Shown here: positions 42,063-62,951 of the stretch, piece after piece | Position numbering within the stretch: position 1 is the first letter of the stretch | Layout of the letters: every line of letters starts with the position of its first letter | DNA from: an uncultured Chloroflexia bacterium | GTDB lineage: Bacteria > Chloroflexota > Anaerolineae > B4-G1 > SLSP01 | Length of the DNA stretch: 64,000 nt | Direction of reading: 5' to 3' | Assembly (NCBI GenBank): GCA_963751345.1 | Contig: CAVVUS010000013.1 | Coordinates: 32,001 to 96,000 of the forward strand | Notes under the pieces: generated by a model | The model's input: the letters and a program-made list of their open reading frames with translations, nothing else | Told to the model about the DNA's origin: nothing | Database searches by the model: none | Program-made: the position numbers and the translations under genes

Positions 42063-44391
42063 ATGAGCCAACAGCCACCCCGAGCCCTGGCCATCGTCCT
42101 GATTCTTTTCGCGATCCTGGGCACGCTCTACAGTGTGGTCACCCCGATCTTCGAGGCGTCCGACGAGCTCTGGCATTACCCGATGGTCGAGGTCATCGCG
42201 AGGACGGGCCAATTGCCCGTCCAGCCGACCGAGCCGGGCACCAGCAGCGGTCCGTGGCGTCAGGAGGGCAGCCAACCCCCGCTCTACTACGCACTCGGCG
42301 CCGCGCTGACGTTCTGGATCGACACGAGCGACCTGGACGTGGTGCGACAGCCGAACCCGCACGCCCGCGCGGGCGAGATCACACCGGAGCGCGACAACGT
42401 CAACCTCGTGATCCACAATCCTGCTGCCGAGCGGTTCCCGTGGTCGGGGACGGTGCTGGCGGTGCACATCGTGCGGCTGCTCTCGGTGGCGCTGGGCGCA
42501 TGGGCCGTCTATCTCACGTGGGCGCTGGTACGCGAGCTCTTCCCGGCGCAGCCCTGGCTCGCGCTGACGGCAGCCGCCGTCCACGGGTTTACGCCTATGT
42601 ATCTCTTCATCAGCAGCTCGGTCAACAACGACAACCTTATCGTGCCCCTGAGCACGCTGGCGCTGCTCCTGATGGTGCGCCGTGTGAAGCAGGCGGGGCA
42701 GATGCCCCGAGCGTCTGCCTCCGCGTATGCCTACACCGGGCTGGGGATCGTGATCGGGCTCGGTCTGCTGACCAAGGCCAGCGGGATCGCGCTGGTCGCC
42801 ATGGCACTGGCGGCGCTGGCCTGGGAAACGTGGCGGCTGCCCGATAGATGTCGGCTGGGGGAGACGGGCCGCTTTTCTGGGCAGCCGGGCGATGGTGATG
42901 TTGGTGCCCGCGACGGTGATTGCGGGCTGGTGGTTCGTCCGCAACGTCCGGCTCTACGGTGACTTCCTCGGCTTCAACGCCTTCTACGCCGTCCTGGGAA
43001 CGCGTGACGTCCCGGCGGACCTGGGCCAGCTCTGGGCGGAGCGAATGGCCTTCGCCTCCGGCTATTGGGGGAGTTTCGGCGGGCTCAACGTGCCGATGCC
43101 CGGCTGGATCACGACGGTACTCAATTGGGCCGCCATCGTCGCCGCCGCCGGGTTGGTATTGCGCTTGGGCACCTGGCTGCTTGACACGTCGGAGGGCACG
43201 TGGGTCGAGAAGGTATGGCCCTTTGCCTGGTCGAACGCCACCGCCGCCCGCGCGCTCGCGTGGGCTTTCCCCGTGGGTGTCTTCCTCTCATGGAGCCGGT
43301 GGGCAACCGTCACCTGGTCGTCGCAGGGTCGCCTGATCTTCACCGCCATCTCGATGTGGTCGCTGGCGTTGGTCCTGGGGCTGACCGCATGGCTGCCCAA
43401 GCGCACCGGGAGAATCCGGCGCCTGCCCGGCATCGCCCTGGCGGTCGCGCTCCTGGGGCTGTGCGTCGTGGCGCTGCCCGCGTGGATCGCCCCGGCCTAC
43501 CGCCCGCCACAGACCACGGCCATCGCACCCGCCGACCTCGGGCTGACGCCGCTGGACGTACGGTTTGGCGATGACCTGGAATTGCTGGGCTACGCCGTCG
43601 AGACAAGCGCCGTGGCGCCGGGGCAGCCTGTCGAGGTCCGCCTGATGTGGCGGGCACTGGGACCGACGCCGACGTACCGCTCGATCTTCCTTCACGTGCT
43701 GGGCCAGGGCGATCGCATCGTCGCCCAGCGGGACACCTTCCCCGGACACGGCTTGCTGCCCACGACCCAGCTTGCCGCGGGACGCACGTGGGTCGAGCGC
43801 CACGTCCTCGCGATCCCGCGCACGGCCTACACGCCCGATGTGCTGACGCTCGCCGTGGGCGTCTATGAGACCGCCACCGGAATACGCACGCCGCCCTCAG
43901 GCCCATCCATCGCGGAGGGGGCCGACAGTGCGCGGTTCGGTGACGTCGCGCTGAATGCCACGACAGGCGAGGCCGCACTCGGCGTGCGCTTCGGCGACGG
44001 AATCGTGCTGGAGGGCTACACGCTAAGCGACGTCGTGGTCGCGCCGGGCGCGGACCTGACCGTGACGCTGAACTGGCTGTGCACCGCCCCGGTTCCCGAC
44101 GACTACACCGTCTCGGTGCAGGTCATCGACACCCAATGGCACAAGGCTGCGCAGTTGGACAGTTGGCCGCTGGACGGGCAGGCGCCGACCTCGTCGTGGC
44201 AAGTGGGCCGGCGGATCTCCGAAACCCGCGTGCTGACCCTCTCGCCGGACGCCGTGCCGGGCGCCTACGACCTGCGCATCTCGCTCTACCGCCCCGACGG
44301 GAACGGTGATCTGATCCACCTACCCGTCTCGCTTGGCAATGCCGAGATGCCGTCCAGGGACATCGTGCTGACGACCGTGCGGGTGCGCTGA
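42063..44391 (+). CDS. GT-C membrane glycosyltransferase (ArnT/DUF2142-like) with two C-terminal Ig-like domains (frameshift near 42880)
   Basis: PIFEASDELWH, QPPLYY, VNNDNL, LTK, WFVRN, QGR; two FGD..L.GY...W beta domains. Confidence 0.85.
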
Positions 44392-44446
44392 TGCGGCGCC
44401 GGCAGACGTGGCGGCGCCGGCGGACGGGGCGTCGGGGGGCCGCAGG

Positions 44447-47106
44447 ATGAGGGCAGCCGCACGCCGGATCGCGCCCTATCTACTCCTCGCCGGCATTCTC
44501 GGCCTCTTCTTCTGGCCGGTCTGGCTGCTGGGCGCCTCCTTCCCCGTCGGCGGCGGCGATCTCTGGGGACAACTGCTGCCCGTCTGGACCTACGTCGGGC
44601 ACTTCCTGCGCCACGGCACGCTCGCGCTCTGGTCGACCCAGATCATGGCGGGCGACCCCATCATCGCCGAGCCGCAGTATGGCCTGCTCAACCCGCTGAA
44701 CTGGTGGCTCTTTGTCGCCGGTGCCTTCACGTCCGGGGCGCTGCCCAGGGGGCTGGTGCTGGCGCGAGGCCTGCTCCCGCTCTACATCGCCGGCGCGGGG
44801 CTCTACACCTATCTGCGACGCTCGCCCATCTGGCGGCTCGGGCACGGGGCCGCACTGCTCGGCGGCGTCGCTTACATGCTCTCCGACCCCTTCATCACGC
44901 ACCTGGGCCACCCGCAGATGAACGACGGGATGGCGTGGCTGCCGTGGGCGCTGCTCTCGGTCGATCTGACGATCCGGCAGCGACGATTCCGCCCGCAGAC
45001 GGCGGCGGTGCTGGGGCTCGTCGCGCTGTCGGGCCACTACCAGACAATCCTCTTCACCGCAGGCGCAGCGGCGCTCTACGCGCTCTGGCGGCTTCTCGGC
45101 CAACCGCGGCGGACGTGGACGAGCCACGCGGGGCGGCTTGGGCTCGCCGCCGTGTGCGCCGCCGCACTCGCCGCGCCCCCGTTGCTGGCCAGCCTGGAGC
45201 GCTACCCCTTCACGGAGCGGTCGATCCTGCAGATCGAGCCGTGGACCGGGTACAACTGGCCTCCGGCGATGGCCATCGACCTGCTCGCCCCGGGGTTCCA
45301 CGGGCGGGGCACGGTCGGCTTCTGGGCATCGTGGGCCAGGGTCGAGGGCGGCTACGCCGGGGCCGTCGCGCTCTTCCTCGCAGGGCTCGGCCTGCTCTAT
45401 GGGCTGCGTCGCGGGCGTACGTGGATCTTCGCGGCCATCGGTGCCCTGGGCACGCTCTTTGCCCTGGGATTCAGCGGCCCGCTCTACCCCATCCTCACGC
45501 ACATCGACCTCATCGCACGGATGAACAAGCCCGCGCGGGCCATCTTCCTGTTGTCCTTCGCCATCGCCGTCCTCGCTGCCGCCGGTGCGGACGCGCTGCG
45601 CCGTTGGTTCGTCGTACCCGATTCATCGGTCTCTGCCGCGGAGCGCCCGGCGATAAAGTCGCCGGGCTACAATGCTGCGCCCGATGAATCGGGCTTCCGG
45701 ATCGCGAGCGCCGAGTCAAGCCCCGTTCACGGGGCGCCACCCCATAGCCCGGCGACTTCATCGCCGGGCGGCTTCGATTGCCAACGGCCCGGTCACCGCG
45801 CACAGCGGAACGACTGAAGTCGTTACTACGAACCTGGGCTGCCGGCCTGCGCCGTTGGTTCGTAGTAACCGATTCATCGGTCTCTGCCGCGGAACGCCCG
45901 GCGATAAAGTCGCCGGGCTACAATGCCGCGCCCGATCAATCGGGCTTCCGGACCGCGAGTGCCGAGTCAAGCCCCGTTCACGGGGCGCCACCCACTAGCC
46001 CGGCGACTTCATCGCCGGGCGGCTCACCGCCGGGCGGGCTCCGATCGCGCGCGCTCCCACTCGCCCTATGGTCCGCACTCCTTCTCGGCGGCGCCATTCT
46101 GCTCTCGACCAAGCTACCCCAATGGCTGTCCCAGGTTCCCGGCGGCCGGCGAGCCGATGCCGTCGAGGCCCTCGTCATCGCAGGCATCGCGGCGGTCGCC
46201 GTCGTGGCCCTGGCGTGGGCCGTCGCCGGGCGACGCCGGTGGGCGGCGACGGCCCTGCTCCTGCTGCTCGTGGGCGAGATGATCCTCACCGGCTCCGGGG
46301 TCGAGCTCGAAGCCGACCGGCGACAGCCCGCCCGACCCTGTGATCACCTATCTCCGCACCGATCCCAACTGGTATCGTGTCGACGTCGACGCCTCCGCGC
46401 GCGGGCTGCTGTCGCCATCGGTCCTCGTCAACGAGGGCTTCGACGTGCCGCAGGGGTCGGGCAATCCGATGGAGCTCTTCTCGTACACCCAGTTCTATTG
46501 GGCGATTCCCACGAAGGGATCGCCGGCCTACCAACTCCTCGGCGCCAAGTACATCGTTGTGCCCAAAGACGCCTTGCCGGGCGGCGAGGGGATCTGGCCC
46601 GTCTTCACCGATGCCCCGCTGGTGGACGTGCACCTCAACACCAACGCCCTGCCCAGGGTCTGGCTCGTCTACGATACGCTGCCCGTCGACACGATCGAGG
46701 CCGCCAACGCCGTCGTCTTCGACCCGACCTTCGAGCCTGCCCGCGTCGCCACCGTCAAAGGTGGCCCCGATCTGAACGGCGAGGGCACGGGATCGCTGGA
46801 GGTCGCGGCCTACGGGGCTAACCGCGTCGACGTGATCGTGCGCACGTCGGAGGACGGCGCTGTTGGTGCTTATCGGACATCGACTATCCAGGTTGGATCG
46901 CCGGAATCGACGGTAACCCGGCCCCGCTCTACAGAACCGACGGCATCTTCCGCGGCGTCGTCGTGCCTGCGGGCGAGCACCGCGTGACGATGCGCTACCG
47001 GCCCGTGCCGTTCCGCATGGGCCTCGGCCTCGCGGCGATGGCACTGCTGGTGATGGCGGTCGTTCGTGGCCGTTCTGGCGGGCGGACTTCTAGCCTTGTC
47101 CCCTGA
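44447..47106 (+). CDS. YfhO-family GT-C membrane protein carrying a ~430-bp palindromic insert (frameshifted)
   Basis: LW....AGDP...PQYG..NPLNW, WLPW, N.NALPRVW, YPGWIA.IDG...GIFRGVVVPAGEHRVTMRYRP. Breaks near 45790, 46330 and 46870. Confidence 0.85.
45596..46024. repeat. tandemly duplicated nested REP/REPIN-like cassette inside the YfhO gene
   Basis: ~178-bp direct repeats at 45596-45773 and 45847-46024, each with GTAG-headed hairpins in inverted pairs. Confidence 0.9.
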
Positions 47107-47126
47107 CACGTGGTACAATGCACCCC

Positions 47127-47894
47127 ATGGATCACAACCCCACCATCATCAAACTCGGCAGCACGATGCCGTCACTGGCGACCCGGCACGGAGACTTCGA
47201 GGACTGGGTCATCAGCGGGATGGGGCTGACACGGGATGATGTCCGGGTCATCGACCCTACCCAGGGAGAAGCACTTCCACCACCCGACGCCCTGCCGGGC
47301 ATTGTGCTCACCGGCTCGCACGCGATGGTCACCGACCGCGAGCCCTGGAGCGAGGCAGACGGCGGGGTGGCTGCGGGAGGCCGTGCGTGTCCGGCGTGCC
47401 GGTCCTGGGCATCTGCTACGGTCACCAACTGCTGGCCCACGCGCTCGGCGGCGAGGTCGGTGACAACCCGCAGGGCCGTGAGTTTGGCACCGTCGACGCA
47501 TATCTGACGCCGCAGGCCGCGGACGACCCGCTCCTCGGCGGGCTCGGCAAGCCCGATCCGGGTGCACACCAGCCACACGCAGACGGTCCTTCGCCTCCCG
47601 CCCGGCGCCCGCCTCCTGGCGACCAGCACGCTGGACCACCACTTTGCTTTCGCCATCGGGGACGTCGTCTGGGGCGTGCAGTTCCACCCTGAGTTCGACG
47701 CCGAGGTGGTGCGGACCTACATCCGCGCGTTCGGATCCATCCTGACCGCGGAGGGACAGGACCCCGACAGGCTAGCCGCCACGTGCAGCGACACACCGTA
47801 TGGGAGCATCATCCTGCGGCGGTTCGCCGAGATCGTGCGCACGCCGGTCACGCGCCGGTTGGGGGCCACCGCCGGGGAGGCGCGGTGGGCATAA
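47127..47894 (+). CDS. class I glutamine amidotransferase-like protein (frameshifted)
   Basis: [29 protein letters not shown] (catalytic Cys), WGVQFHPE. Confidence 0.88.
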
Positions 47895-47932
47895 CACGCT
47901 CGCCAACTTCGGGGCGTCACGAGGCCTCTGAG

Positions 47933-49843
47933 GTGAACGCTGAACGCTCGAAGCTGCTCTGGATCCCCGCCGCAGCAGTGCTGCTCGCCTACCTGCTCCG
48001 CACGTTCTCGCTCGACCTCCAGTCGTTCTGGATCGACGAGGTGCAGGCCTTCTACTTCGTGGATCACTCCTTCAAGGAGACCGTCAAGCTCCTCATCTCG
48101 CCTGAGAACAATGGCCCGCTCTACTTCCTCCTGCTCTGGGGATGGCGGCAGATCGGTGGCGCCTCCGACTTCGCGATTCGCTATCTCTCCGATCTGCTCT
48201 CGGTCCTGACGGTTGCGGTCCTCTGGCAGTTGGCACGGACCTGGTTTGGGCGGCGCGTAGCCGGGCTCACCGCCCTGCTGCTCGCGATCTCGCCCTTTGC
48301 CGTCTGGTTTGGGCAGGAAGCCAAGATGTACGCGCTGCATATGCTGCTCGCGGCGCTGAGTACGCTGCTCCTGATCCGCGCGGCGAACCGCAACCGTTGG
48401 ACGCTGTGGCTTGCGTACGGAATCACGCTCAACCTGCTGGGGTACAGCCACTTCTTCGGCGCCTTCACGATCCTGGCCCAGGGAATCCTGCTCGTGGTGA
48501 CGCACCTGCGCAAGCCGGAGATCAGAGTCACTCGCAGCTATCTCGTGACGATGGCCATCGTCGCCCTGCCCTACATCCCTGTGGTGCGCTTCGCCTGGCG
48601 CCTCATACCGAACTTCAACATGCAGGACATCAGCAAGGGCTTCGTCGAACTCAAGTATATGCTCCAGGAGCTGGCCTCGGAGTACATCTTGCGGGTATCC
48701 CGGATCTACGTGCCGCATCTCTGGCCGTTGATGGCCTTTGCCGGCGTGGCGCTCGCCCTGGGACTCGTGCGGGCCTGGCGCACTGGCTGGCGCCGCGCGC
48801 TCTGGGTCGCCGGTCTGATGGTCCTGCCGGTGGCCATCTTCTATCCGATCTCATACTTTGTGCCGGTCTTTTCGCCGAAGTACCTGAGCGCCACGTTCCT
48901 GATGGTGACGCTGGCGTTCGGGTTGGCGGTCGATCAACTGGGAACGTGGTGGCGCCCGCTTGGCTGGCTCGGGCTGGCCGGACTGGTCGTCCTCAACGGC
49001 TGGGTGAACGTCCGCATCCTCACAGATCCCTACTACCAGCGCACGGACTTCCGGGCAGCCGTGGCCTATATTGAGGGCCACGCGGCGCCCGATGATATGG
49101 TCATCGCCTACGCGCACTACGTCGACCGGGCGATCAAGCGCTATGAAGTCGGCTCGCTGCCCGTCGTCCGGTTCCAGGGCGACGCGTATCAGCCCGAGCC
49201 CTTCTATCAGGACGTGCTGGAGAACCAGAATCAGGTGCACACGCTGTGGCTGGTGCTGCACCAGGATCAGGCGATGGCGCCCCAGAACCGCCTCCGCGAT
49301 GCCGCCGGGCTGCTCTACCCCCAGATCACGGGCGTCTACCCCAACGACGGGCAGATCGCGGTCCTCGGCTTCAGCGTGCAGTGGCGCCACGACCGGTTGC
49401 CCGAGAGCGCAACGCCGGTCGAGGCCGGCTTCGCGAACGGCCTCGCACTCGTCGGCTACGCGGTCGACACGCAGGCGCTGCAGCCCACCGACGACCTGCT
49501 CCATCCGCCGAGCAACTGGATCCACGTCACGACCTATTGGCAGCGCTGGGGCGATGCGCCCGCGCCCGGCGACTTCACACCCTTCGTCCGCCTGGTGGAC
49601 GACCAGGGCGGGGTCTGGGGCGGCGAGCTCCAGCGACCGCCGACCGTCTTCCATCGCGATCCGCCCGAGGACTGGGATGCGACGACGATCGTGGAGGCGC
49701 ACTACGACGTGAACCTCAACCCGGTCACGCCGCCCGGCACCTACCACCTGATCGTGGGCATCGAGGACGGGTCGGGGGCGCAGGTGCCGGTCCGGAACGG
49801 GGACGCGGCAGCCGGGCTGACCGCGATCCAGATCCTGCCATGA
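47933..49843 (+). CDS. GT-C glycosyltransferase (GT39/PMT_2-like) with C-terminal Ig-like domain
   Basis: QSFWIDE, NGPLYFLLL, WFGQEAKMYAL, YSHF; FANGLALVGY...YW domain. Confidence 0.88.
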   Translation: MNAERSKLLWIPAAAVLLAYLLRTFSLDLQSFWIDEVQAFYFVDHSFKETVKLLISPENNGPLYFLLLWGWRQIGGASDFAIRYLSDLLSVLTVAVLWQLARTWFGRRVAGLTALLLAISPFAVWFGQEAKMYALHMLLAALSTLLLIRAANRNRWTLWLAYGITLNLLGYSHFFGAFTILAQGILLVVTHLRKPEIRVTRSYLVTMAIVALPYIPVVRFAWRLIPNFNMQDISKGFVELKYMLQELASEYILRVSRIYVPHLWPLMAFAGVALALGLVRAWRTGWRRALWVAGLMVLPVAIFYPISYFVPVFSPKYLSATFLMVTLAFGLAVDQLGTWWRPLGWLGLAGLVVLNGWVNVRILTDPYYQRTDFRAAVAYIEGHAAPDDMVIAYAHYVDRAIKRYEVGSLPVVRFQGDAYQPEPFYQDVLENQNQVHTLWLVLHQDQAMAPQNRLRDAAGLLYPQITGVYPNDGQIAVLGFSVQWRHDRLPESATPVEAGFANGLALVGYAVDTQALQPTDDLLHPPSNWIHVTTYWQRWGDAPAPGDFTPFVRLVDDQGGVWGGELQRPPTVFHRDPPEDWDATTIVEAHYDVNLNPVTPPGTYHLIVGIEDGSGAQVPVRNGDAAAGLTAIQILP

Positions 49844-52341
49844 CCGGCGCTCGGGGTCGCCGGCTCGCCGGGGAGCTCACTGTCTTGCTCCTCCTCGTGG
49901 CCTTCGCGCTGGGCATGGCCCAGGTCGTGCGGGCGTCGATCACGTTCGACGAAGGGCCCCACCTCGCCATCGGCTACGCCACACTGCGGACCGGCGACTT
50001 CCGGCTTCAGCCGGTGCACATCCATCCACCGCTGGCCAACGTGCTCGCGGCGGCGCCGCTGCTCCTCCAGCACGATCTGCCCGACCCCAGGGCGGTGGAC
50101 GGCTGGGAGGTGAGCAGCCTGTCCGCGATCACCGACGCCGTCGTCTGGGCCTACCCCAGCCCACGGCGTATCGCGACCGCGGGCCGCGTGCCCATCCTGC
50201 TGCTCGGCACGCTCACTGCCGCCCTCGTCTTCCGTTGGGCGCGCGACCTTGGCGGGCGACGCGCCGCGCTGCTGGCGCTCGGGCTCTTTGCGCTCGACCC
50301 CAACGTGATCGCCCACAACGCGCTGATCACGACCGACGCCGCAGCGGTGCTGTTCATCGTGGCCACGCTCTATGCGCTCTACCGGTACGTCACCGAGCCG
50401 CTCAGGCCCGCCCGGCGTCGCGCCCTTCTGGGCACCGGGGTTCTGCTGGGCCTCGCACAGATCACCAAGGTCTCGGCGTTGATGCTGGTCCCGGTCGTCG
50501 TCCTGATCCTCGTTCTGCACGCGTGGGAGGCACACCGGCGCGCTGGTTCGACCCTTCGCGCCGCGACACGGCACGTGGGGGCGGTATTGGGGATCGCGGC
50601 GCTGGTGATCTGGGCCGGGTACGGCTTCCAGGTCGGAAGGATTGAGGGGTTTCCCCTGCCGGTACCCGCTCCCACGCACATCGAGATCTTCCGCTCGCTC
50701 GACACCCACTACGAGCTGGGCCATCCGGCCTTCGCCCTGGGTCGGGTAAGCACGCAGGGGTGGTGGTGGTACTTCCCGCTGGCCTTCGTCCTGAAGACGC
50801 CCCTGCCGGTGCTGTTGCTGGCGATTGGTGGCCGCCATCGTCGGAACCGCTAAAGCGGTGACTACGAACGGCGCTTGGACAATGTACGTCCGGCACATCG
50901 CTTAACCGGACCGCGGGCGTCTCGCCCGCATGTGCACGCGGCCATCGGCGCAGTGCCGGGCGAGACGCCCGCGGTCCGACAAGCTACAGGCACAAGCACT
51001 GACATGTCCTCCTGGTTAGCCGCGACCACGATCGGGATCTTTCCCGTGCTCTACGCCGGCGCGAGCCTCTTCAGCACCGTGGACATCGGCTATCGCCACC
51101 TGCTGCCTGTTCTCCCGTTCCTCTACATCGCGATCGGCAGTATAACGGAGAAGACCTTTGAGGTTTACGTCTCTAGCAGGCGTCTGCTAGAGCAGGAAAC
51201 CTCAAAGGTCTCAGCGTGGACGCTTCCTTCAGTGGCACCGAGGGTCGTCCTTGCAGGGCTGCTCCTCTGGCTCGCGGTCGGAACGCTGGCCACGCTCCCC
51301 TACCCCCTCACCTTCTTCAACGAGATCGCGGGCGGGCCCGCCAACGGCTACCGCGCCCTGGTCGACTCGAACCTCGACTGGGGCCAGAATCTGTGGGATC
51401 TGAAGGCGTGGATGGCGGCGCACGGCATCTCGCACGTCGCCTACGCGCACTACAGCCCGGCGCGGCCCGACACCTACGGCATTGAGGCCGACTGGCTCCC
51501 ACCGGATCCGCGCGCGGTGTCGTTCGACCCGTGGCATCCTGCGCCGGGACTCTACGCCATCGGTGCGACGGTGCTGCAGGGCCCCTACGCCCCCGATCTG
51601 AACACGTTCGCGTGGTTCCGCGATCGGACGCCGGTCGCGAAGCTGGGCAACGCGCTCTTCCTCTATCAGGTGGAGGACGACCGGCGCCCGCCTGGGCGGA
51701 GCTTTGCACGCAGGCTATCAGCGCCGATGACAATCCGCCGCCGCGTGGGCGTGCCCGAACTGCGCGTGGTGCAGCCGGCCTGCGACCAGGCGTTCGTCAT
51801 CCCCGCATCGGAGACGCCGGGCCTGATCGTGCTGCCGCCCGACCTGCCGACGCCGGACGTGGGCGACCCGTTGCTGACCCTGCGCAACGCCGATGGAGAC
51901 ACTCAGGCGATCGTGCGAAGCGTCTCCGCGGATGACGTGCGCCCTGAGGCGCCGGCACCCGTCGGGGACACCCTGATCGGCCCGCTGACCTTCCTGGGCA
52001 CGACGAGTCGGAGCCTCCGCAGCAGGGACGCCCGACGTGCTGCAGATCCAAACCTACTGGCGGGTGGTCGACCTCCCCGCGCGCCCGCTCTCGCTGATGG
52101 CGCACCTCGTCGGCCCGGATGGGCGACGCTGGCCGTTGGCGACGGGATGGGCTTCCCGATCGACCAATGGCAGGTCGGCGACGTCATCGTGCAGACGCAC
52201 CGGTTCGAGCCGGCCGGCGGGCCGCCGCAGGGCGAGGCGATCTCGCTCCAGATCGGCGGCTACTGGTTGGACACGCTCGAGCGCTGGCCCACGACCGGCG
52301 GCGGCGACAGCATCACGGTCGCCCTGAAATCCGAGCCGTAG
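49840..52341 (+). CDS. GT-C glycosyltransferase (ArnT/PMT_2-like), paralog A, with three palindromic inserts
   Basis: TFDEGPH, HPPL, LITTD, WWWYFP...LKTP, GYRHLLP, LVDSNLDWGQ. In-frame TAA at 50851 lies inside a palindrome; further indels near the C-terminus. Confidence 0.8.
50845..50978. repeat. two REP-like elements inside GT-C paralog A
   Basis: 50845-50869 reads GTTCGTAGTCACCGCTTTAGCGGTT on the minus strand; 22-bp perfect inverted repeat at 50907-50928/50957-50978. Confidence 0.85.
51152..51211. repeat. 60-bp nested palindrome inside GT-C paralog A
   Basis: AGACCTTTGAGGTTT...AAACCTCAAAGGTCT (15 bp perfect) enclosing CTCTAGCAG-gcgt-CTGCTAGAG. Confidence 0.9.
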
Positions 52342-52348
52342 GCGATCG

Positions 52349-54847
52349 ATGGACGACTCACAGCCACGCAGGCGCGGCAGCGCCCAGAGCCATCGGAAGG
52401 GGCCCGGACGTTCTCCTGCGTTGGGCGCTCAGGCCGCGATCCTTGTGCTGATGCTCGGCTTCTTCGCCCAATTGACCTTCGGGTCGCTGGCCCTATCGCT
52501 GACCTCGGACGAACCCCCGCACGTGGCGCATGGCTACATCATGCTCACCACGGGCGACACCTGGGCGCTGAGCGAACACCGGCACCCGCCGCTGCTGAAC
52601 ATGCTGGCAGCCCTGCCGCTGCTGCTCCAGCCCGAGCACCCCGACCCGGCGACGGTGCCGGGGTGGCACCAGGATTTCGTGGTCTTCGTGCGCAACCTGT
52701 GGCCGCTGCTGGGACCCGTCGACCGCCAGGCCTTCGTGACCCGCGTCCCCACGATGCTGCTGAGCGTTGCGCTGATGGCGCTGGTGGCCCGGTGGGCGCG
52801 GGAGGCGTTTGGCCGGACCGGCGCGCTCGCTGCCGTCGCGGTGATGGTCTTCGACCCGGCGATAGTGGCCCACGGCCAACTCGCCACGACGGACCTCGGC
52901 GTGGCACTCTTCACCTTTGCTGCGGTCTACCTGGTGACGCAGGGAAGGCGGTCCACGGCCCGGATCCTCGGCGCGGGTGCAGCGCTGGGCGCCGCGCTGG
53001 CATCCAAGGGCTCGGGCGTGTTGCTGGTGCCGGTGATCTTCGCGCTGTTGGCGTGGCGCTGGGCTACCCAAGACGGCGAACCGCTTGAGCGCCGTGAAGG
53101 CATTGCAGGGTTGGGCACGCGACTGCGGTCTGGTCCTGCTCGTGAGCTTCGCCGTGCTCTGGGCGACGTACGGCTTCCGGCTGGAGCCCTCACCGTGGGG
53201 AAACCTGCGACTGCCGCTGGTGGCACACGCGAAAATGGTGGGCCTCATCCTCAGCGAGAAACAGCGGACGGCCTTCCTCCTGGGTGAGGTGCGCCAGGGC
53301 GGGTGGTGGTGGTATTTCCCCTTCGCCCTCGCCGTCAAGACGCCGCTGCCGCTGCTGGCACTCTTTGTCGGCGCCGGGGTCGCGTGGCTGGCGCGCCCAC
53401 GCCGCCTGCTGGCGATGCCGGGCCTGTGGCTCTACCCGCTCGTCCACTTTGGCACCTCGGCGCTCAGCGGGATGAACATCGGCTACCGCCACCTGCTGCC
53501 CATCTTCCCCTTCGGTTACGTCGCCATCGCCGCCTTGGTGGGGCAAGTGATGGACGGAATCCGCTGGACCGCGGGCGTCTCGCCCGCATCCGCGCCGCGC
53601 AGGCGAGCGCCGCACGGCGGCGGCATGCGGCGCCTCGTTGCGCGGCGCGGAGCGGGCGAGACGCCCGCGGTCCGAGCCGCGGCTTGCGGTCCTCGCGGTC
53701 ATCGCCCTGATCTCGTGGCAGGCCGTCGAGACGGCGACGGTCTTTCCGTTCGGCCTCGCCTACTTCAACGAACTCGTGGGCGGCCCGCGCGAGGGCTATC
53801 GCTCCCTGGTCGACTCCAACGTGGATTGGGGGCAATCATTCAAGGCGCTGGCAACGTGGATGCGCGGGGAGGGCATCGACCATGTGAGCTTGAGCTACTA
53901 CACGTGGATCGATCCGGCGGCCTACGGCATCGACTACACCCCGCTGCCGCCGGCGGGCGGTGGATCCGCCACCTTCCCCCGGCGATTCGACCCGGCACCC
54001 GGCGTCTACGCGATCAGTGCCACGCCGCTGGAGGGCGTTATGGTCGCCAACCCGGACCTCTACGCGTGGTTTCGGCAGCGGGAGCCCATCGCGCAGCCCG
54101 GGTATGGGCTGCTGGTCTATGACGTGGCACCGAGCGCGACCGAGCCCACGTGGGTGGCGCAGTGTACACAGCCGGTCGCGCCGCTGACGCAGCAGGTGCT
54201 CGCGGAGGGCTTCGGGCGGACCGGCCTGCGCGAGATCGGCTTTGACTGCACCGGCGGTTGGATCCAGCCCACCGGCGGGAGCGAGGCAGGGTGGTACGTG
54301 GTTCACGGTGCCGTCACAGGGGATAGCTTTGTGTCACAGCACCTCGCCGGTAGCGGCGCGACCCTCAGCTACCGGCAGCGGGAGCCGGGGCTGCTGCCGC
54401 CGTTTGACATCTACGCGCAGCCTGCGACGATGGGGCAGCCCGAGGTCGTGCTGCCGGCCCCGATCCCGTTCGGGCCGGTGACCCTCCTGGGGTACACGTT
54501 GGCGTCGCCGGCCGTGGCGCCCGGTGAGACGCTCGACGTCGAGACGTGGTGGCAGGTGAACGAGGTGCCCGATCGACCGCTCTCCCTGATGCTTCACCTT
54601 GGCGCCCCCGGGGATGGCGCCGATCGCCGTCGGCGACGGCCTTGCAGTGCCTGCCGAGATGTGGCGCGCGGGCGACGTCATCATCCAACGCCACGTGCTG
54701 CAGATCCCACCGGGCGTCGCGCCCGGCGACGCCACGATGACGGCAGGCGTCTATTGGCTCGACTCCCTGGAGCGATGGCCGGTCACCGGCGGGCCGCAGC
54801 TCGGTGCGACGGAGGTCGGGCTGGCAAATGTCACGATAGGGCGGTGA
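52349..54847 (+). CDS. GT-C glycosyltransferase, paralog B (frameshifts near 53100, 53680, 54600)
   Basis: TSDEPPH, HPPL, LATTD, WWWYFP...KTP, GYRHLLP, LVDSNVDWGQ, GVYWLDSLERW. Confidence 0.85.
53566..53673. repeat. 108-bp hairpin element inside GT-C paralog B
   Basis: GGACCGCGGGCGTCTCGCCCGC...GCGGGCGAGACGCCCGCGGTCC plus an inner 13-bp stem; same outer arms as 50908-50977. Confidence 0.9.
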
Positions 54848-54929
54848 GGGCTGGCTGAACCGGCGCGCATACCCGGACACCAAAGATGGCGTCCCGTCGA
54901 GGGTCTACGGCGACAGGAGGCCCGTGTGA

Positions 54930-56601
54930 TTGTATGGCACGTCGATTGCCGGCCTCGTCCTATGCCAAACACAAGCCGTGAAATCCGTGCAATCGGCTGA
55001 ATCCGTGATTCAGACACCCTTGCGAAGGTTTCCGCACCTTCGCAAGGGTCACTTGCACCGCCTGGCCATCGTCGCCATCCTGCTGCTGGCAGCGGCGCTG
55101 CGCTTCATCGGTCTGGAGCGCACGCCGCCTCCCTTCAACGTCGACGAGGCACTCCACGCCTACGAGGCCTACGCCATCCTGCGCACGGGGCACGACGAGT
55201 GGGGCCAGCCCTGGCCGATCACCTTCCGCGCCTTCAACGACTACCGGCGCCCCGCCACCATCTACAGCGCCGTGCCTTTCGTTGCCATCTACGGCCTGAC
55301 GATCACGGCCATCCGTTCGATGGCGGCATTCTGGGGATGGCTCTCGATCGTGCTGGTATATCGCCTGGCAAGCGATCTCTTCGACCGCCGCGTTGGGGTA
55401 GCGGCGGCGCTGATGCTCACGCTCTCCTCGTGGCACGTCGGCTTCTCGAGGCTTGGCGTCGAGGCCTCCGGGCCGCTGCTGCCTACCATCATCGGCGGCC
55501 TGGTCCTGGCGTGGCGGTGGTATAGAACACGCCGTCCCGTGCTCTTGCTGGGCGCCGGACTGGTCTTCGGTCTATCGCTCTACACCTATACGGTCGCGCA
55601 GGCCCTCACCCCGCTGCTGGTGGTAGCGATTGGCTTGATCTTCTTCAGCGCCCTCCGGAAGAGCCCACAATGGGGCGCAGCCGCCATCGCGGTCGTCGTC
55701 GTGGTCGCCGTCCCGCTGGCGGTCGCCATCGTCACCAACCCCGTGACCTGGAACCGGCTCAACGCCATTTCCGTTATGGCCGACCCCCAGGCGAACGGCG
55801 GCTGGTTGGCGGTGCGGCAGTGGCTGGGCCACTTCTCGCCGCAGTACCTCTTCCTGACCGGGGATGCCTCGCCGATCCACCATATTCAGGGTTACGGTCA
55901 GCTCTATTGGATCGAGGCGCTGCTGGTGCCGCTGGGGCTGGTGAACGCTTTCCGCGCGCGGCGCGATCGTCGGGCCGGATTGCTGCTGTTGGCGTGGCTC
56001 GCCGTGAGCGCGGTGCCGCCCGCCCTGACGCGCCAGGATATGGGGTCGCCGAACTCGATGCGGGGCATCGCCGGCGTGGGCGCGTGGGCCGTGCTGTCGG
56101 GCTTGGGGCTGGCCCTGGTGGTGCAGCGGCCTTGGCGACACGTGCGGCTTCGCGCCGTCCTGTCGGGACTCGTTGTGGGAACGCTGTTGTGGAACGCGGG
56201 GATGGTGCTGCACGCCTATTTCACGGTCTACCCGATCCAGTCCGCACGCGCCTATGAATACGGCATCCGCGAGGCGATGGACTACGTGATGGCGCACGAG
56301 GACGAAGTCGACACGATCGTCCTCACCGACTGGATCAGCCAGCCGCACATCTTCGCCGTCTTCTTCGAACGCTACGATCCGGCTGCCTTCCAGGCAACTC
56401 ACGCGCCCTACGGTGACAGGCTCTCGGAGAAACTCACGGCGTGGGGCGACAAGTACAGGACGGGCAACGCCGAGGAGCTCTACGAGGAGCTCGACCACGG
56501 TCTCTTCGTCGTGCGGCCTCACATGCTCACGGACGTCATACCCGAACGTGGTCATCCTCCATCCGGACGGCACGCCGGCGTTCAAGGTGATTCGCAAGTA
56601 G
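54930..56601 (+). CDS. GT-C glycosyltransferase (ArnT-like); start uncertain, frameshift near 56545
   Basis: FNVDEALHAYEAYAILRTGHDEWG..WP, WHVGFSR, SLYTY, HFSPQYLFLTGD. Confidence 0.85.
54976..55049. repeat. 9-mer-periodic 40-bp repeat (copy 2) abutting a REP hairpin
   Basis: 54976-55015 matches 19591-19630 (reverse complement); 55016-55049 ACCCTTGCGAAGGT-ttccgc-ACCTTCGCAAGGGT matches 38004-38038. Confidence 0.85.
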
Positions 56602-56792
56602 ACGACGGCCGTTACCTTCTGGGCTGCTATGCGGTGATGCCCACGCCCTAAGGTCACACCTGGGCAACCCGGAAGGTCCCGCGCCGGGTAGGCAGTCGCG
56701 ATCGAGGCCCTTCGCTAGTATGCCCATGGCCTTCAGGTATAATGTCGCCAAGGGGGCACGCCCCCAAACACCTTGACGGAGGATCACCACCC

Positions 56793-58058
56793 ATGCACAG
56801 GAGCGTAGTCTCAGCTATCCTCATAGCTCTGCTCACGATCATCGCCCTTTCGGCCGGCGGCACGACACTGGCCCAGCCGGTCGACGGCCCAGCCACCATG
56901 ATCGACCCGGATCCCGGTACCAACGGCGGCGTCGCCATCCACTCGACCGGCGCCACGAATCTGCTCACCAACGGCGATATGGACCAGCTCGGCTTCTACT
57001 TCAGGCCAAAGAACCACTACGTCGCCGGGATGTGGTTCGAGTGGTGGGCGGATTACACCGCCATCCCCGAGTACATCGACGGCGGCATCTCGTACCACAA
57101 CCAGTGCTATCCGGTGCCGGTGGATGGCCACTGTCACAACAGCACCGTGGGCGCGCCCAACAATAGCTCGCAGGGCTACATCCGCTGGGGAGGCCTGTTC
57201 GCCGCGGGTATCTACCAGCCGGTGCACAACGTGATACCGTGCACGCTCTACACTTTCGAGATCTACAACCGCAACGACACGGCAAACTACCACGCCAAGG
57301 TCGCCATCGACCGGGCCGGTTGGATCATCACCCAGCCCAGCGGCAATCCTCTGGAGAACTGCCCTCCCGATGGCGCCTCTCCCTGTCCCGATCCCTACGT
57401 GGCAAGCTTCCCGAGTACCACGGTATGGTCTGCCGAGTCCCACCAGCCCGCGCTGACCTGGGCGCCCATCAGCGTGACGGCGGAGGCTGCCGCCACGACC
57501 ATTTCGGTTTGGACCTACGCCCGTCCCGACTCCGGCCCCTCGCAGTCGGCCTACTGGGACTACGGGTCGCTCGTCCAGACGCCATTCCCTGATGCCACGC
57601 TCCCTGCGCCGGCCTCGTGGTATCCGTCGGACTTCATCTCCAACGTCACGACCCAGGTGAACGGCAACAGTGTCACCATCAACTGGGAGACGGGTGCCGC
57701 CGCCCCTACCCAGGTCTGGTACGCCATCTACGAGCCGGCGGCTGTGGTAACGCCCACCGAGTCGATGACCTACACGACTTACCTCCCGATAGTGGCCGCC
57801 TTCCGTCCCCCTACCCCGACCTACATGACACCGATCGACATCACGTCGACGTCGACGCAGCACCAGGTGGTCATCTCCGGACTGCCCACCGACAAAGCGA
57901 TCGTCTTTGCCATCCTCTCACGGCGGCCGGACGGCACGACGTGCGACACGGTGGCCGGTGATCTGATCCAACTGACGCTCTCCACAAACGAGATGATGAC
58001 CCTCCAGTCCTCCAAGGCCGCGACACTGCTCCCGGGTCCTGTCGTGCCGGAGCCCTAG
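56793..58058 (+). CDS. secreted protein with CBM-like jelly-roll and FN3-like domain, internal YLPIV motif
   Basis: TATAAT at 56738, GGAGG, signal peptide; NLLTNGD, AGIYQPV and VTINWET motifs. Confidence 0.75.
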   Translation: MHRSVVSAILIALLTIIALSAGGTTLAQPVDGPATMIDPDPGTNGGVAIHSTGATNLLTNGDMDQLGFYFRPKNHYVAGMWFEWWADYTAIPEYIDGGISYHNQCYPVPVDGHCHNSTVGAPNNSSQGYIRWGGLFAAGIYQPVHNVIPCTLYTFEIYNRNDTANYHAKVAIDRAGWIITQPSGNPLENCPPDGASPCPDPYVASFPSTTVWSAESHQPALTWAPISVTAEAAATTISVWTYARPDSGPSQSAYWDYGSLVQTPFPDATLPAPASWYPSDFISNVTTQVNGNSVTINWETGAAAPTQVWYAIYEPAAVVTPTESMTYTTYLPIVAAFRPPTPTYMTPIDITSTSTQHQVVISGLPTDKAIVFAILSRRPDGTTCDTVAGDLIQLTLSTNEMMTLQSSKAATLLPGPVVPEP

Positions 58059-58062
58059 CCGT

Positions 58063-60538
58063 GTGATGGGGGGTCGTATCGCCACAGGACGCCTTGCCGG
58101 GGCCGGCCGGTGGCTGGCCCTGGTCGCTCTGTGGTGTTTCCTCGGCCAGGCCCTGGCGGTCGCCGGTGCGACGTCGATGACGGTCGACGAGGGGCTGCAC
58201 GTGGCCAGCGGCTACACGATCTGGCGGACCGGCGACTATCGCCTGATCGAGGAGCATCCGCCGCTGGTGAAACTGTGGCTGGCGATCCCGCTGCTACCGC
58301 TGAAGGACCTGGCTGACCCGACGACGCTCCCCGCCTGGCAGGAGGCAGCTAAACCGACGACGGAAAGCCTGCCGCTGCTTCAGATGGCGCAGCAATTGCT
58401 CTACCCCCACACGCCGGTCGACGGGTGGCTCTTCCCGGCACGGGCGATGGCCTCACTTCTCGGCGTGCTGCTGCTGGCGGCGCTCTACCGGTGGGCACGC
58501 GAGATCGCGGGCACGTCGGGTGCGCTCTTTGCCGTGGCCCTGGCCGCGTTCGATCCCAACTTGCTGGCCCACAGCGCCGTCGCGACCACGGACATGGGTG
58601 CCACAGCACTGATCCTGCTCTCACTGTGGCAGGGCACGCACTTCCTGAAGCGACCCACGTGGCGGTCCGCCCTGGTCACGGGAGCCCTTCTGGGCTTCGC
58701 GCTCGCCACCAAACTGACCGCACTGCTGCTCGGCCCGGCGCTCGGGCTGGCGGGGCTGATCGCACTGGCGGTCTCCCCGCCCAGGCGCCGCAGGCGGCTC
58801 TTCCGCGGCGGCCTCGCCGTGCTGGCGGCGTGCGCCATCGTCTTCTGGGCCATCTACGGCTTCCAAGTGGGCTTTGTGCCGGGGCTCCCCTTCCCGGTCC
58901 CCGCCGCCGCTCACGCCATCCCGATTCTGCGGCTTCTTGCCCACAGCGAGGGAGGACACCAGGCCTTCCTGCTCGGGGAGAACAGCACCTACGGCTGGCC
59001 TGCGTATTTTCCGGTCGCATTCCTGCTCAAGACACCCTATAGCCGGCCTGATCGCGATGGCCGTGGGTGTGGGCGGGCTGCTGGCCGGTGCCGTGCGACG
59101 GAGACAGCTCAGCCTCAATGGGCTTCCGGCGGTGTTGTTTGCCGCGGTCTACGTCGTCGCGTCCATCGCAAGTCCCCTCAACATCGGTTACCGCCACCTC
59201 CTGCCGCTGCTGCCGCTGGGCTACCTGGCGGCGGGCGCTGCCCTGGGCCGCCGAAGCCGGTTCCTCCGCCCGGGCTCCCGGTCGCAGGCCTTCGGCCTGC
59301 TGCCCATCCTGGCGATCGTCTGCGTCCTTGGCCAGGGGAGTGCGACGCTCAGCCGGACGCCGGACCTCATCGCCTTCTTCAATGTCGCCGGCGGCGGCGC
59401 CGATCAGGGGTGGCGCTACTTAGCGGACTCCAACACCGACTGGGGCCAGGGCTACAAGGCACTGGCGCGCTTCCAGAAAGCACAGGGGACCGGCCCGGTG
59501 AAGCTCGCTGCCTTCATCTTCTACGATCCTGCCCTCTACGGCGTCCGCTACACACCACTCCCGCCGCTCGGTGGCGACACGCCCGCACTCTTTCCGTCGC
59601 GCTTCGCGCCACAGCCCGGCGCCTACGTCATCAGCGCCACGCCGCTGGACGGGATCCCCACGGCCGACCCGGAGATGTACGACTGGTTCAGATGGCGCGA
59701 GCCCGACGCGCGTGTAGCCGGTGCGCTCTTCTATTACGACGTTACGCCGCAGGAAGTCGAGACGGCCTGGGTAGCGGAGTGTACACAGCCCATCGCACCC
59801 CTTGACAAGGAGGCCATCGAGGCGGGATTCGGCGCGCCTCCGGACCGCGTGCTGGCGTTCGACTGCACCCGCACTTGGGTCCTCCCCGGCAGTGGGCGCG
59901 ATCCTGGGGCCACCGTGGTTCACGGAGCGTTGCTGGACGACACGTTGCGAGCCCGGCTGCATCTGACCGCTCCCCAGGCGACCGAGCCCTTCCTGGCGCG
60001 GCGGCTCGGCGAGACACAGATCACCTATCGCCAGCGGGCCTATCGCTTCGACCCGGCGTTCGCCATCTTTCGATCCGACAGGGGTGCCCCTGCCCCACCG
60101 CAGGTCACGGCCCGAACGGGTCGGGCCGATGCTTCCCTGGCCGAGGTCAGCCGGTCGCGGGCCGCGTCGCTGCCGGTCGCGCTGGACGGGCCGCTGGCCT
60201 TCCTCGGCGCCAGAGCCTATCCGGAGGGCGAGACGCTGGAGGTGGAGACGTGGTGGCGCGTGACCTCCGCTCCCACGGACCGCCCCTTCTCAGTCATGGG
60301 CCACCTCCTCGCGTCAGACGGCACCTCGCTCGGCGTGGACGACGGGTTGGGCGTGGCGCCCAACGCTTTGCGGGAGGGGGACTTGCTGATCGAGGTGCAC
60401 CGGTTTGCCACACCCCAGGCAGGCTCGACCGTCTGGCTCCGCACCGGAGCCTATTGGCTGGACACGATGGCGCGCTGGCGGGTCAGCGCTCCGGATGGTG
60501 CGGACGCGATCTTCGTGGCGCTAGAGCCGGGCCGGTAG
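58063..60538 (+). CDS. GT-C glycosyltransferase, paralog C (frameshift near 59040)
   Basis: TVDEGLH, EHPPL, VATTD, YFP...LKTP, GYRHLLP, LADSNTDWGQ, GAYWLDTMARW. Confidence 0.87.
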
Positions 60539-60552
60539 CCCATGCCCGGAGC

Positions 60553-60587
60553 CAACTGACAACCGGTAACTGACAACACCCAACTGT
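60553..60587. repeat. five tandem heptamers (YAACnnn) between convergent stops
   Basis: caactga caaccgg taactga caacacc caactgt. Confidence 0.75.
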
Positions 60588-60590
60588 CTT

Positions 60591-61133
60591 TCACCACAGC
60601 CGCAACTGCATCCGCATCTGCAGCCCTGCCTGCTCCAGCTCCAGCAGCACGGCCTTGCGCTCGACCCCGCCGGCGTAGCCGAGAAGCGCCCCGTCCGCGC
60701 CGATGACACGGTGGCACGGCACGAAGATGGCAACGGGGTTCGCGCCGACAGCCTGCCCGACAGCCTGTGAGGCGTGGGGCGTGTTCAGGAGCGTAGCGAT
60801 GGTGCCGTAGGTGGAGGTCTCGGCGTAGCCGATCCCGCGCAGTTGCTCCCATACCCTCTGCTGAAACGGCGTGCCGCGCAGGTCCAGCGGGAGGTCGAAA
60901 GTCTCCCGGCGCCAGTTGAAGTAGGCGAAGAGTTGGGACCTGGCTTCCACGAGCAGGTCGGTGCGCGCGGGGTCGGGGGACGCGACGCCAAAGCGCGCCA
61001 TCCGGCGCAGGATCGGGTGCCCCACGCTGTCCCCAAAGCCGGCGCCGCAGAGACCCTGGTCGGTCGCCCACAGCCATACCAATCCAAGGGGCGTTTCGGT
61101 GAAGATGATGCTGGACGTTGTCAAATCGGCCAT
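60591..61133 (-). CDS. ogt: methylated-DNA--protein-cysteine methyltransferase
   Basis: GTPFQQRVW, AVGQAVGANP, PCHRV active site. Confidence 0.93.
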   Translation of the reverse strand: MADLTTSSIIFTETPLGLVWLWATDQGLCGAGFGDSVGHPILRRMARFGVASPDPARTDLLVEARSQLFAYFNWRRETFDLPLDLRGTPFQQRVWEQLRGIGYAETSTYGTIATLLNTPHASQAVGQAVGANPVAIFVPCHRVIGADGALLGYAGGVERKAVLLELEQAGLQMRMQLRLW

Positions 61134-61149
61134 GGGTCGTCTCTCCTCG

Positions 61150-62937
61150 TCAATCGCCGAACCGCGGGCTGGTGAGCCGCCAGATGTCCGCGAGGTGCTG
61201 CGCCTCGAACGCCGCCCGCTGGGGCCACGCGTCGCGGTTCAGGACCAGCAGACCATAGCGTCCGGGGGCCTCGGGGATCAGCCCATAGGGCTCCCACCCG
61301 CGGGCCAGCGACAGCGACGTGATTCGGACGGCGTCCCCGACGATCGGCGCACCATCCGGGTTGCCGGCCAGCGCAATGTCCACGTCATCCAACAACATCC
61401 CCAGCAGTACGCTGTCCCGCTGTGCCAGGGTATCCTGCCCCAGTGCCAACACGAGCTCGATGGCGACCGGCTCAGGCTCACGCGGCCTCCGAACAAAGTC
61501 GGCCACGATCCCCAGACGCTCCCCCTCGGCGGGGCTGAAGAGGATGCCCTCCAGGAAGTGCGCCGATGGATCATAGGCCAACTGGTACGCGCGCATGTCA
61601 TCCATCAGGCGAAACTCGAGGTTGAGCAGCGTCTCGCTCTCCGGTGTCACCGACGCCTCCCCAAGCCACGCCTGCCAATTGGCCTCCAACGCTGCCGTGT
61701 CGGGCAGGCCCAGCGCAGTCACCATCGCCTGCCATCGCGCCACGTCGTCCCCATCCTTCACGTCCGCAGAAGCAGCGCAGATACGCGGCAGCTCGTCCCA
61801 CCCGTACTGCGACACGATATACTGCACGACCGCGCCGGCCTCCAGATAGCCGACCTCGTGCTGATGGGTGTAGAAATCGTCGACCAGGGCGGACAGGGAC
61901 ACATAGCGCGGCGACGAGAGCAGCGCGGCTGCCTTCTCTCGCAGCGGTTCGGGCCGGTAATGCCCGCCCGCGACATAGACCGCCAGTCCCTCGCGAAACA
62001 TCGAGGGAGCCCCTTCACAGCCGATGCCCTTATCGAGCCGGTGCGTCAACTCGTGTCGCAGCACCGTGCCCAGGGACGTCGGCGAGTACTGTCGATCCAC
62101 GTAAGAGATCGCCACCCAGTCCGACGAAGCATATCCCCCCTGACCCAACACGCGGTCCAGAAGGTAGATCTCCACTGCCTCGTCTGCCGGGCCCAGGCGC
62201 GCCGAGACATCTGCGTAGGCCTGTTGTGCCTGAAGCACAATCTGGTCAAGGTCGCGCGCCGCTGCCGAGTCGGTCAGGTAATGCAGCCGGAACCCCTGCG
62301 TCTCGGTGATCGCCCATGTGGTGTCCGGCTCGGGAGGAGGAAGCGCTGCGCGCGCCAGGAGTGGGACCGTCAGCGCCAGGCGGTTGTTCTCGAGATTGTC
62401 ATCGATGACGTTCTTCGGGAGCTGGAGCGTCAACGTCAGCGCCTCAGTCGTCGCCGTCTCGGGCATCTGCGCAATCCAATAGAAGCGGGCGCGCTCCACG
62501 TTATCCAGTCCGGAAAGCTCGACGTTGGCCGTGAAATCCGTGCCATCACCCAACATCAGCGCCACGGTTGTGTCACCATCGGCACCGGCGAGCACCGGAT
62601 CCACGTCCACCGAGAGGAGGTCGCCGGCATAGAGCGGCCAGGGGAAGAGATGGAAACCGGTGGCGGTCAACTGGGGATCGGCCTCAGGTGTCGGCGTAGG
62701 CGAGGGCGACGTCGTGGGCGTGAAGGTGGCTGCGGGCCGGGGGGTAGCGGTTGCTGCAGGTACGGCCGTGGCCGGAGGCACAGTGGCGGAGGCTCTCGGC
62801 GTCGAGGTGCGCGGTGGCGCAGTCGCCGTCCGGAGCGACTCAGGCAGCGAGGGAACTCCGCAGGCGAGGCTCGACGCGAGCAACGCGCAGAGCACCAGAC
62901 TGAGAACGAGCACAGGCCGCCTGGCGAACGGTTTCAC
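61150..62937 (-). CDS. lipoprotein with Thr/Pro linker and gluzincin (peptidase MA-like) domain
   Basis: Lipobox SSLA-C, TP-rich linker, HELTH followed by FREGLA. Confidence 0.8.
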   Translation of the reverse strand: MKPFARRPVLVLSLVLCALLASSLACGVPSLPESLRTATAPPRTSTPRASATVPPATAVPAATATPRPAATFTPTTSPSPTPTPEADPQLTATGFHLFPWPLYAGDLLSVDVDPVLAGADGDTTVALMLGDGTDFTANVELSGLDNVERARFYWIAQMPETATTEALTLTLQLPKNVIDDNLENNRLALTVPLLARAALPPPEPDTTWAITETQGFRLHYLTDSAAARDLDQIVLQAQQAYADVSARLGPADEAVEIYLLDRVLGQGGYASSDWVAISYVDRQYSPTSLGTVLRHELTHRLDKGIGCEGAPSMFREGLAVYVAGGHYRPEPLREKAAALLSSPRYVSLSALVDDFYTHQHEVGYLEAGAVVQYIVSQYGWDELPRICAASADVKDGDDVARWQAMVTALGLPDTAALEANWQAWLGEASVTPESETLLNLEFRLMDDMRAYQLAYDPSAHFLEGILFSPAEGERLGIVADFVRRPREPEPVAIELVLALGQDTLAQRDSVLLGMLLDDVDIALAGNPDGAPIVGDAVRITSLSLARGWEPYGLIPEAPGRYGLLVLNRDAWPQRAAFEAQHLADIWRLTSPRFGD

Positions 62938-62951
62938 CTGATGTCAGCCCC

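Follow-up and report, generated by a model that had tools for sequence, protein, structure and literature searches.

Doublets of repetitive extragenic palindromic sequences in inter-helix loops of GT-C glycosyltransferase genes from an Anaerolineae bacterium

The GT-C glycosyltransferase genes of an uncultured bacterium of the Anaerolineae carry palindromic DNA inserts that are best explained—with a probability of about 0.78 for the explanation as a whole—as ordinary doublets of repetitive extragenic palindromic (REP) sequences, or REPINs, which belong to several systems of REP-associated tyrosine transposases (RAYTs) and are tolerated in the loops of these membrane enzymes. The whole stretch analysed, here called the window, comprises 64,000 nucleotides (G000:C13:32001-96000) of the assembly designated G000 (GCA_963751345.1; 5.4 Mb in 49 contigs), a cluster of GT-C genes of the PMT_2 and YfhO types occupying its 42-60 kb. 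A sister genome, G002, is ~92% identical to G000 over this cluster. It should be pointed out that an earlier note, made from the letters of the window alone, had already described the palindromes.

According to the explanation preferred here, several RAYT (HUH/Y1 single-strand transposase) systems would coexist in this Anaerolineae lineage, their REP doublets spreading mainly between genes, and the RAYT would most likely drive the copying and replacement of the single-stranded hairpins; cleavage of single-stranded repeat DNA has been shown for other RAYTs, as far as the available part of the source goes (PMC8266576). A coding copy would survive only with an open frame and at a site tolerating 20-40 extra residues. 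The short, positively charged and probably cytoplasmic inter-helix loops of the GT-C enzymes may be such tolerant sites and the largest target, because catalysis and the soluble domain lie across the membrane and the genome holds ~50 GT-C genes. A loop once expanded would behave as a slot, in which later families insert beside, overwrite or delete the earlier ones, selection keeping only the frame.

Hairpin inserts in the GT-C paralogs

Three genes of the cluster, all on the forward strand, were compared: paralog A (49840..52341; PMT_2/ArnT-like), paralog B (52349..54847) and paralog C (58066..60538). All of them are PMT_2 proteins with PF13231 scores above the cut-off (53.5, 47.9 and 53.1 bits, respectively) and exhibit the features of the GT-C superfamily, i.e. 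the PMT_2 domain, the ArnT/Pmt fold and an acidic motif after helix 1 with D33 and E34 invariant.

Loop L2 of paralog A holds a 60-nt doublet of family F1 (51152..51211), with a nested inner stem and no GTAG tag, that is found at the same site in G002; with a z-score of -8.6 for the RNA fold and none of 200 shuffles folding as well, the nested palindrome seen in the earlier note was confirmed. In loop L1 of the same gene, there is a REPIN-like F2 doublet with 22-nt arms (50908..50977), in frame in G002, the 72-bp hairpin of which (50907-50978) has a z-score of -9.4 (0/200 shuffles as good), as well as, on the reverse strand, a single GTAG-tagged F3 arm (50845..50869) that is decayed in G002. 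Concerning paralog B, its loop L2 is occupied by an F2 doublet of 108 nt (53566..53673; 105 nt in G002) with a z-score of -11.9, again matched by 0/200 shuffles. The A and B inserts occupy the same loop, downstream of the conserved Y413-R414 motif, and the 22-nt arms are common to the 72-bp and the 108-bp elements. Paralog C, being repeat-free in both L1 and L2, served as an empty control; its loop, described earlier as short and plain, is indeed unstructured (z -0.26). Rfam gave no matches for the window positions 44000-64000.

Two descriptions in the earlier note were only partly right. With regard to the pair of elements at 50845-50978, the second does share its arms with the insert of paralog B, whereas the first is the lone F3 arm, a weak hairpin when taken alone (z -1.05). 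Similarly, the hairpin of paralog B does lie at the loop equivalent to that of A, but the peptide proposed for it, TAGVSPA...AGETPAVR, is in the wrong frame, G000 carrying a surplus base near 53554; in G002, the insert follows the open reading frame (ORF) 53638..54858. The argument drawn from lengths divisible by 3 is also weak as evidence of coding selection, because 60 nt is common among intergenic F1 doublets too (22 of 50 are exactly that long); as proof of selection it was rejected, the gain in protein also differing from the arm-to-arm length. Across genomes, the F1 arm-to-arm lengths are often 33, 36, 51, 60, 63, 66 or 69 nt, even between genes, and beside this lean to one class modulo 3, lengths of 34, 49, 61 and 62 nt occur too.

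The genes were called by a frameshift-aware gene model, according to which single-base indels occur in G000 at ~0.27 per kb. Paralog A, one gene, is split by assembly indels at 50827, 50868, 51682/51729 and 52006/52122, as seen by comparison with G002 and with contigs of an independent run (X1); paralog B, likewise one gene, has frameshifts at about 53078, 53554 and 54615, and paralog C an indel at 59038. These many frameshifts, together with an in-frame stop at 50851 in paralog A as assembled, would suit pseudogenes or a picture produced by the assembly itself, a reading that is hardly credible given that synonymous changes dominate the cores of the genes and that the G002 orthologues, which carry the same inserts, are intact. 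Since the latter are open frames of 899, 851 and 845 residues (A, B and C) and independent contigs correct four of the G000 indels, the three paralogs are most likely intact genes, and the stop at 50851, which results from a base gained at 50827 and one lost at 50868 relative to G002, is most likely an assembly error. Every insert being present and in frame in G002, the in-frame tolerance postulated earlier has been upheld. The X1 run covers a small share (0.13) of the region; its contigs, representing a related strain, lack or carry an extra base at 51729, 52005 and 52123 and stop short of the F2 inserts. The single one that crosses the F1 insert has 9 bases missing in total and 7 substituted with the frame kept, which at a depth of 4 is weak evidence.

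Repeat families and their transposases

A k-mer survey of G000 yielded about twenty repeat families. The 12 palindromic ones account for 368 loci, of which, by the gene model, 285 are intergenic and 30 internal, the remainder lying at gene ends; a 0.95-Mb shuffled control gave no matches to them. The genome-wide count called for in the earlier note thus revealed multi-copy families—F1 with 61 loci (45 intergenic), F2 with 24 (23 intergenic, one of those being the paralog A copy in its mis-split gene) and F3 with 42 (31 intergenic)—and, since most loci lie between genes, it did not bear out a coding-tolerated repeat system as such. The families form inverted doublets whose short palindromic arms fold into hairpins, and they have many dispersed, mainly extragenic copies, as is characteristic of REPs and REPINs. 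Only F3 has the GTAG/GTGG tetranucleotide at its hairpin foot; F1 has none, and F2 exhibits a foot variant in G000, the F2 of relatives having the GTAG form. The exact F1 doublet is patchy, occurring in 3 of 301 genomes of the class, and among 71 genomes of the family the F1 arm was found in 10 and the F2 arms in 32. A tandem array of six F1 doublets plus flanks, about 105 nt per unit, is located at G000:C19:101453-102032.

The association with RAYTs, suggested in the earlier note, was recovered for F2 in G000 and for F1 in other Anaerolineae. In G000, a RAYT gene (L002, contig C23; NF047646 93.1 bits, cut-off 80) has F2 on either side, and F2 also adjoins RAYTs in G002 and G006 (L080 and L079, respectively). 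Further RAYT genes of G000 are flanked by F5, F14 and F10, and at least six families are RAYT-linked in the lineage. As for F1, it flanks a RAYT-like Y1 gene on the reverse strand of L246 (586-1185), which scores 54.3 bits with NF047646, i.e. below the cut-off, and contains a 33-nt F1 doublet in frame directly after the HUH motif. F1 adjoins a close relative of this gene in G016 (L293), too, and transposases related to it carry a variant of the F1 arm. By features alone, the F1 transposase resembles, among the TnpAY1 subclasses outlined in the available part of their description (PMC6006769), subclass 2.4 in its internal in-frame REP and subclass 2.6 in its atypical untagged repeat. No small partner genes were found beside F1 in G000 among the matches listed.

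In several close relatives of the L246 gene (L284-L290), variable inserts of repeat origin occupy the same position after HUH. Two Y1/RAYT-like genes of G000 were missed by the Pfam search, one at C19:120530-121478, flanked by F10, and one at C22:32315-32975, split into two frames. In G002, a short RAYT remnant adjoins F8 repeats (L334/L308; G002:C6:193412).

Probable tolerance of coding copies in GT-C loops

A structure model made of the G002 orthologue of paralog A (predicted local distance difference test, pLDDT, 91; predicted template modelling score, pTM, 0.89) matches ArnT and Pmt. The insert in L1 (about 345-384) is modelled as disordered between two helices, and the F1 peptide as a helix extension after Y413-R414 (pLDDT 70-98). 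The predicted alternation of helices, starting from the acidic D33-E34 motif, places both L1 and L2 on the cytoplasmic side, as the earlier note had supposed, and the net positive charge of both loops, like that of other inner loops, is consistent with it. Among 58 homologues, length varies most in these loops; heptamer/octamer tandem-repeat tracts are present in 21 of them, 60 of the 65 tracts being situated in four loops between helices, L1 and L2 among them, and a perfect 11-bp inverted repeat in L1/L2 is found in only three. Judging from these sequences, the GT-C loops accept any repeat DNA, hairpin or otherwise. In many relatives from other genera of the order (L024-L051), these inner loops of the GT-C enzymes are taken up by tandem heptamers.

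The repeated colonisation of GT-C genes, claimed in the earlier note, is evident from the internal copies in G000. With mostly-intergenic 15-mers, 51 internal matches were obtained, 22 of them spanning 22 nt or more, and 12 of these 22 are in GT-C genes, which number 51 and make up 2.5% of coding residues (p 3e-14; at an assumed share of 10%, p 2e-7). For 10 of the 12, the host had been labelled as GT-C beforehand (PF13231, PF09586, PF10131 or an earlier host list). Three copies (C14:18611, C29:16779 and C36:14970) look to be in gene-model fusions; they were kept in the 22, and dropping them leaves 12/19. The copies in L1 of paralog A and in the YfhO gene are missing from the count because frameshifts split both genes. 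Since the filter keeps only mostly-intergenic 15-mers, a short family of 15/18 nt was counted apart, with 0/34 internal copies in GT-C genes. In G002, five F1 loci out of 64 were placed inside genes, each of these genes being GT-C-like by sequence, an earlier run having also called one F1 copy in a soluble protein (L109). A host outside GT-C is exemplified by a 91-nt palindromic insert in frame at G000:C14:23370-23460; its gene is presumably argH, encoding argininosuccinate lyase.

Neutral tolerance is presumably the cause of this excess. It has been considered whether, instead of tolerance acting as a filter, insertion itself might be biased to GT-C loci, through local hotspots close to repeats already present or within surface-glycan clusters. 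Gaps beside GT-C genes do contain repeats more often than others (12/85 vs 318/4021; odds 1.9, p 0.04), but this 1.9-fold local effect is far below the ~20-fold coding excess, and the inserts cluster in the same few loops instead of being spread along the gene, so that such a bias, which can act alongside tolerance, is very unlikely to be the explanation.

With regard to selection, the codon changes between G000 and G002 number 11 nonsynonymous and 2 synonymous in the insert interiors, as against 95 and 153, respectively, in the cores of A and B (p 0.002). Because of this nonsynonymous excess relative to the cores, the insert peptides, presumably translated, are taken as not constrained. One arm is, moreover, read in one frame in G000 and in another in G002, and the same loop holds unrelated sequences in different members of the order. 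The new peptides envisaged earlier were thus not borne out as functional ones, and a role as new cytoplasmic interaction or topology signals is scarcely tenable, despite the confidently modelled helix extension of the F1 peptide and the richness of the inserts in basic residues.

Several points weigh against tolerated REP doublets as the whole account. Tolerance alone does not obviously yield an excess of this size relative to soluble linkers or other membrane proteins; two of the 12 GT-C hosts were labelled only after being seen as hosts; G000 and G002 are non-independent, most events being common to both; one GT-C insert is in an outer soluble domain (C11:201051); and in other genomes, although the samples are small, none of 27 F2 copies is internal and none of the three internal F1 copies (out of 26) is in a GT-C gene. 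Concerning the transposases, no F1-flanked RAYT was found among the 5 Y1 genes found in G000, and F3 has no partner anywhere searched (0/42 metagenome loci next to a RAYT); one loose F3 arm is near a Y1 gene in L063. Finally, the F1/F2 arms in A and B show 1 change over 37 codons where 6.4 are expected (p 0.012).

The last point leads to the main rival, namely that an RNA-level role in the GT-C mRNAs, i.e. ribosome pausing for membrane insertion, or stability or processing in long operons, preserves the hairpins whatever their family, the slots being refilled accordingly. The folds are very stable (-39 to -113 kcal/mol), the arms are better conserved than the interiors with third codon positions included, the replacement of one family by another described below (F10/F11) leaves a hairpin at the same coding site, and the strong GT-C excess is not seen for the short 15/18-nt family. 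On the other hand, the conservation of the arms, which could reflect either hairpin selection or transposase-linked upkeep, becomes non-significant after allowing for the choice of copies (p 0.17 when only one, unselected, branch is counted), several other intragenic F1 copies have arms decayed in G002 and one is deleted in G000. In most homologues, paralog C among them, the loops in question lack a hairpin, and many homologues have the tandem tracts instead. The pacing of translation by mRNA hairpins, raised in the earlier note, is thus not supported, and an RNA-level role, retained as a rival, is considered improbable. Neutral tolerance in the GT-C loops is preferred over both pacing and new peptides because the relatives fill the loops with heptamers or nothing and the interiors of the inserts are unconstrained.

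Turnover of the inserts and relation to known systems

The comparison of empty and filled alleles, proposed in the earlier note, was run between G002 and G000 and revealed filled, empty and swapped alleles. For 79 of the 113 F1/F2/F3 sites examined in G002, there is an orthologous site in G000, containing the same family in 54 cases, none in 12, another named family in five and another or decayed repeat in five, three being unclear. By eye, L124 in this table is a disrupted F2, and L114, labelled as empty, contains another palindrome; the true family swaps number about six. Such presence/absence at orthologous sites of close relatives—with 12 of the 79 sites empty and 5-10 occupied by something else—is a feature of REPs and REPINs.

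Some GT-C genes illustrate the turnover within coding sequence. At G000 C10:138737, an F10 doublet sits in a PMT_2 gene whose G002 orthologue carries F11 at the corresponding place; both alleles keep the frame, and their net difference is 21 nt. In another PMT_2 gene (L340), F1 is present, the G000 allele being in frame and 54 nt shorter with only the outer bases, or feet, of the element left, as though the hairpin had been deleted in frame. The nearest other orthologue of paralog A, from G015 (support 99), has a full F3 doublet in L1, without F2 there and without F1 in L2; since it shares F3 but neither of the others, F3 is probably the oldest insert of paralog A, the order being taken from one tree.

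Among the neighbouring genes, the YfhO-like GT-C gene at 44447-47106 contains an F3/F4 REP array (45582..46024) of two 192-nt composite units, and G002 (L146) reads a related array through in frame. At 54976-55049 of the window, F7 and F8 repeats extend across the beginning of the PMT_2 gene 55005-56651.

In Rickettsia, palindromic elements (RPEs) have a large share of their copies in coding regions and one preferred peptide. Neither was seen here, with 30/368 loci internal and inserts read in different frames; the families are mostly intergenic, have identifiable RAYTs and favour one class of membrane enzymes. The likeness is confined to the in-frame read-through of palindromes inside working genes, known for RPEs from Ogata et al., as summarised in PMC3733652. 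Closer are the intragenic GTAG/CGTC REPs (Di Nocera, De Gregorio and Rocco 2013, PMC3733652), which, according to the available part of that paper, form mostly intergenic palindromic families, several per genome, with dimers within ORFs that encode 20-30 residues, two inserts in one ORF and the same site used in orthologues, loops and linkers being proposed as neutral insertion sites. All these traits recur here. The differences are that F1 and F2 have no GTAG tag and that the hosts there lean to DNA repair and RNA enzymes; in the four text supplements of that paper that were available, "glycosyl" and "mannosyl" occur 0 times and no Anaerolineae are present.

Likewise known are REPs located in frame within RAYT genes (Quentin et al. 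2018, PMC6006769) and insertion beside existing REPINs (Bertels and Rainey 2011, PMC3116915); compared with the REPIN-RAYT systems or REPtrons in the accessible parts of these papers, several RAYT-linked families coexist here and the F1 transposase was not found in G000. Overwriting of REPINs at conserved extragenic sites has been described, in the part of the preprint at hand, with REPORTH (10.1101/2024.10.14.618302); orthologous slots with different repeat types in related genomes are common to both studies, the difference being that one swap here is within a reading frame and keeps it. Neither a bias to GT-C genes nor an in-frame family swap was found to be reported in the literature listings searched, paywalled papers and bioRxiv supplements aside, or in the supplement of PMC3733652. 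The kind of biology, tolerated selfish DNA, is thus already described, and what was not found in print is its unusual concentration in one enzyme class, as seen in the 12/22 internal copies, and a GT-C loop with a different family in each sister genome.

The inserts link RPE-like coding insertions to named transposases and show that, between sister genomes, copies inside genes have been gained, swapped and lost in frame, the defined alleles allowing questions of REPIN movement and host benefit to be tested. A doubtful but consequential extension is that the GT-C loops are standing repeat slots that successive RAYT systems overwrite in frame, a hairpin being favoured for pacing or stabilising the GT-C mRNA; if true, the host would gain from REPIN-RAYT systems inside its coding sequence. 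For annotations of Chloroflexota, there is a warning that such peptides are repeat DNA and not domains, and the inner loops of GT-C enzymes would represent natural permissive sites.

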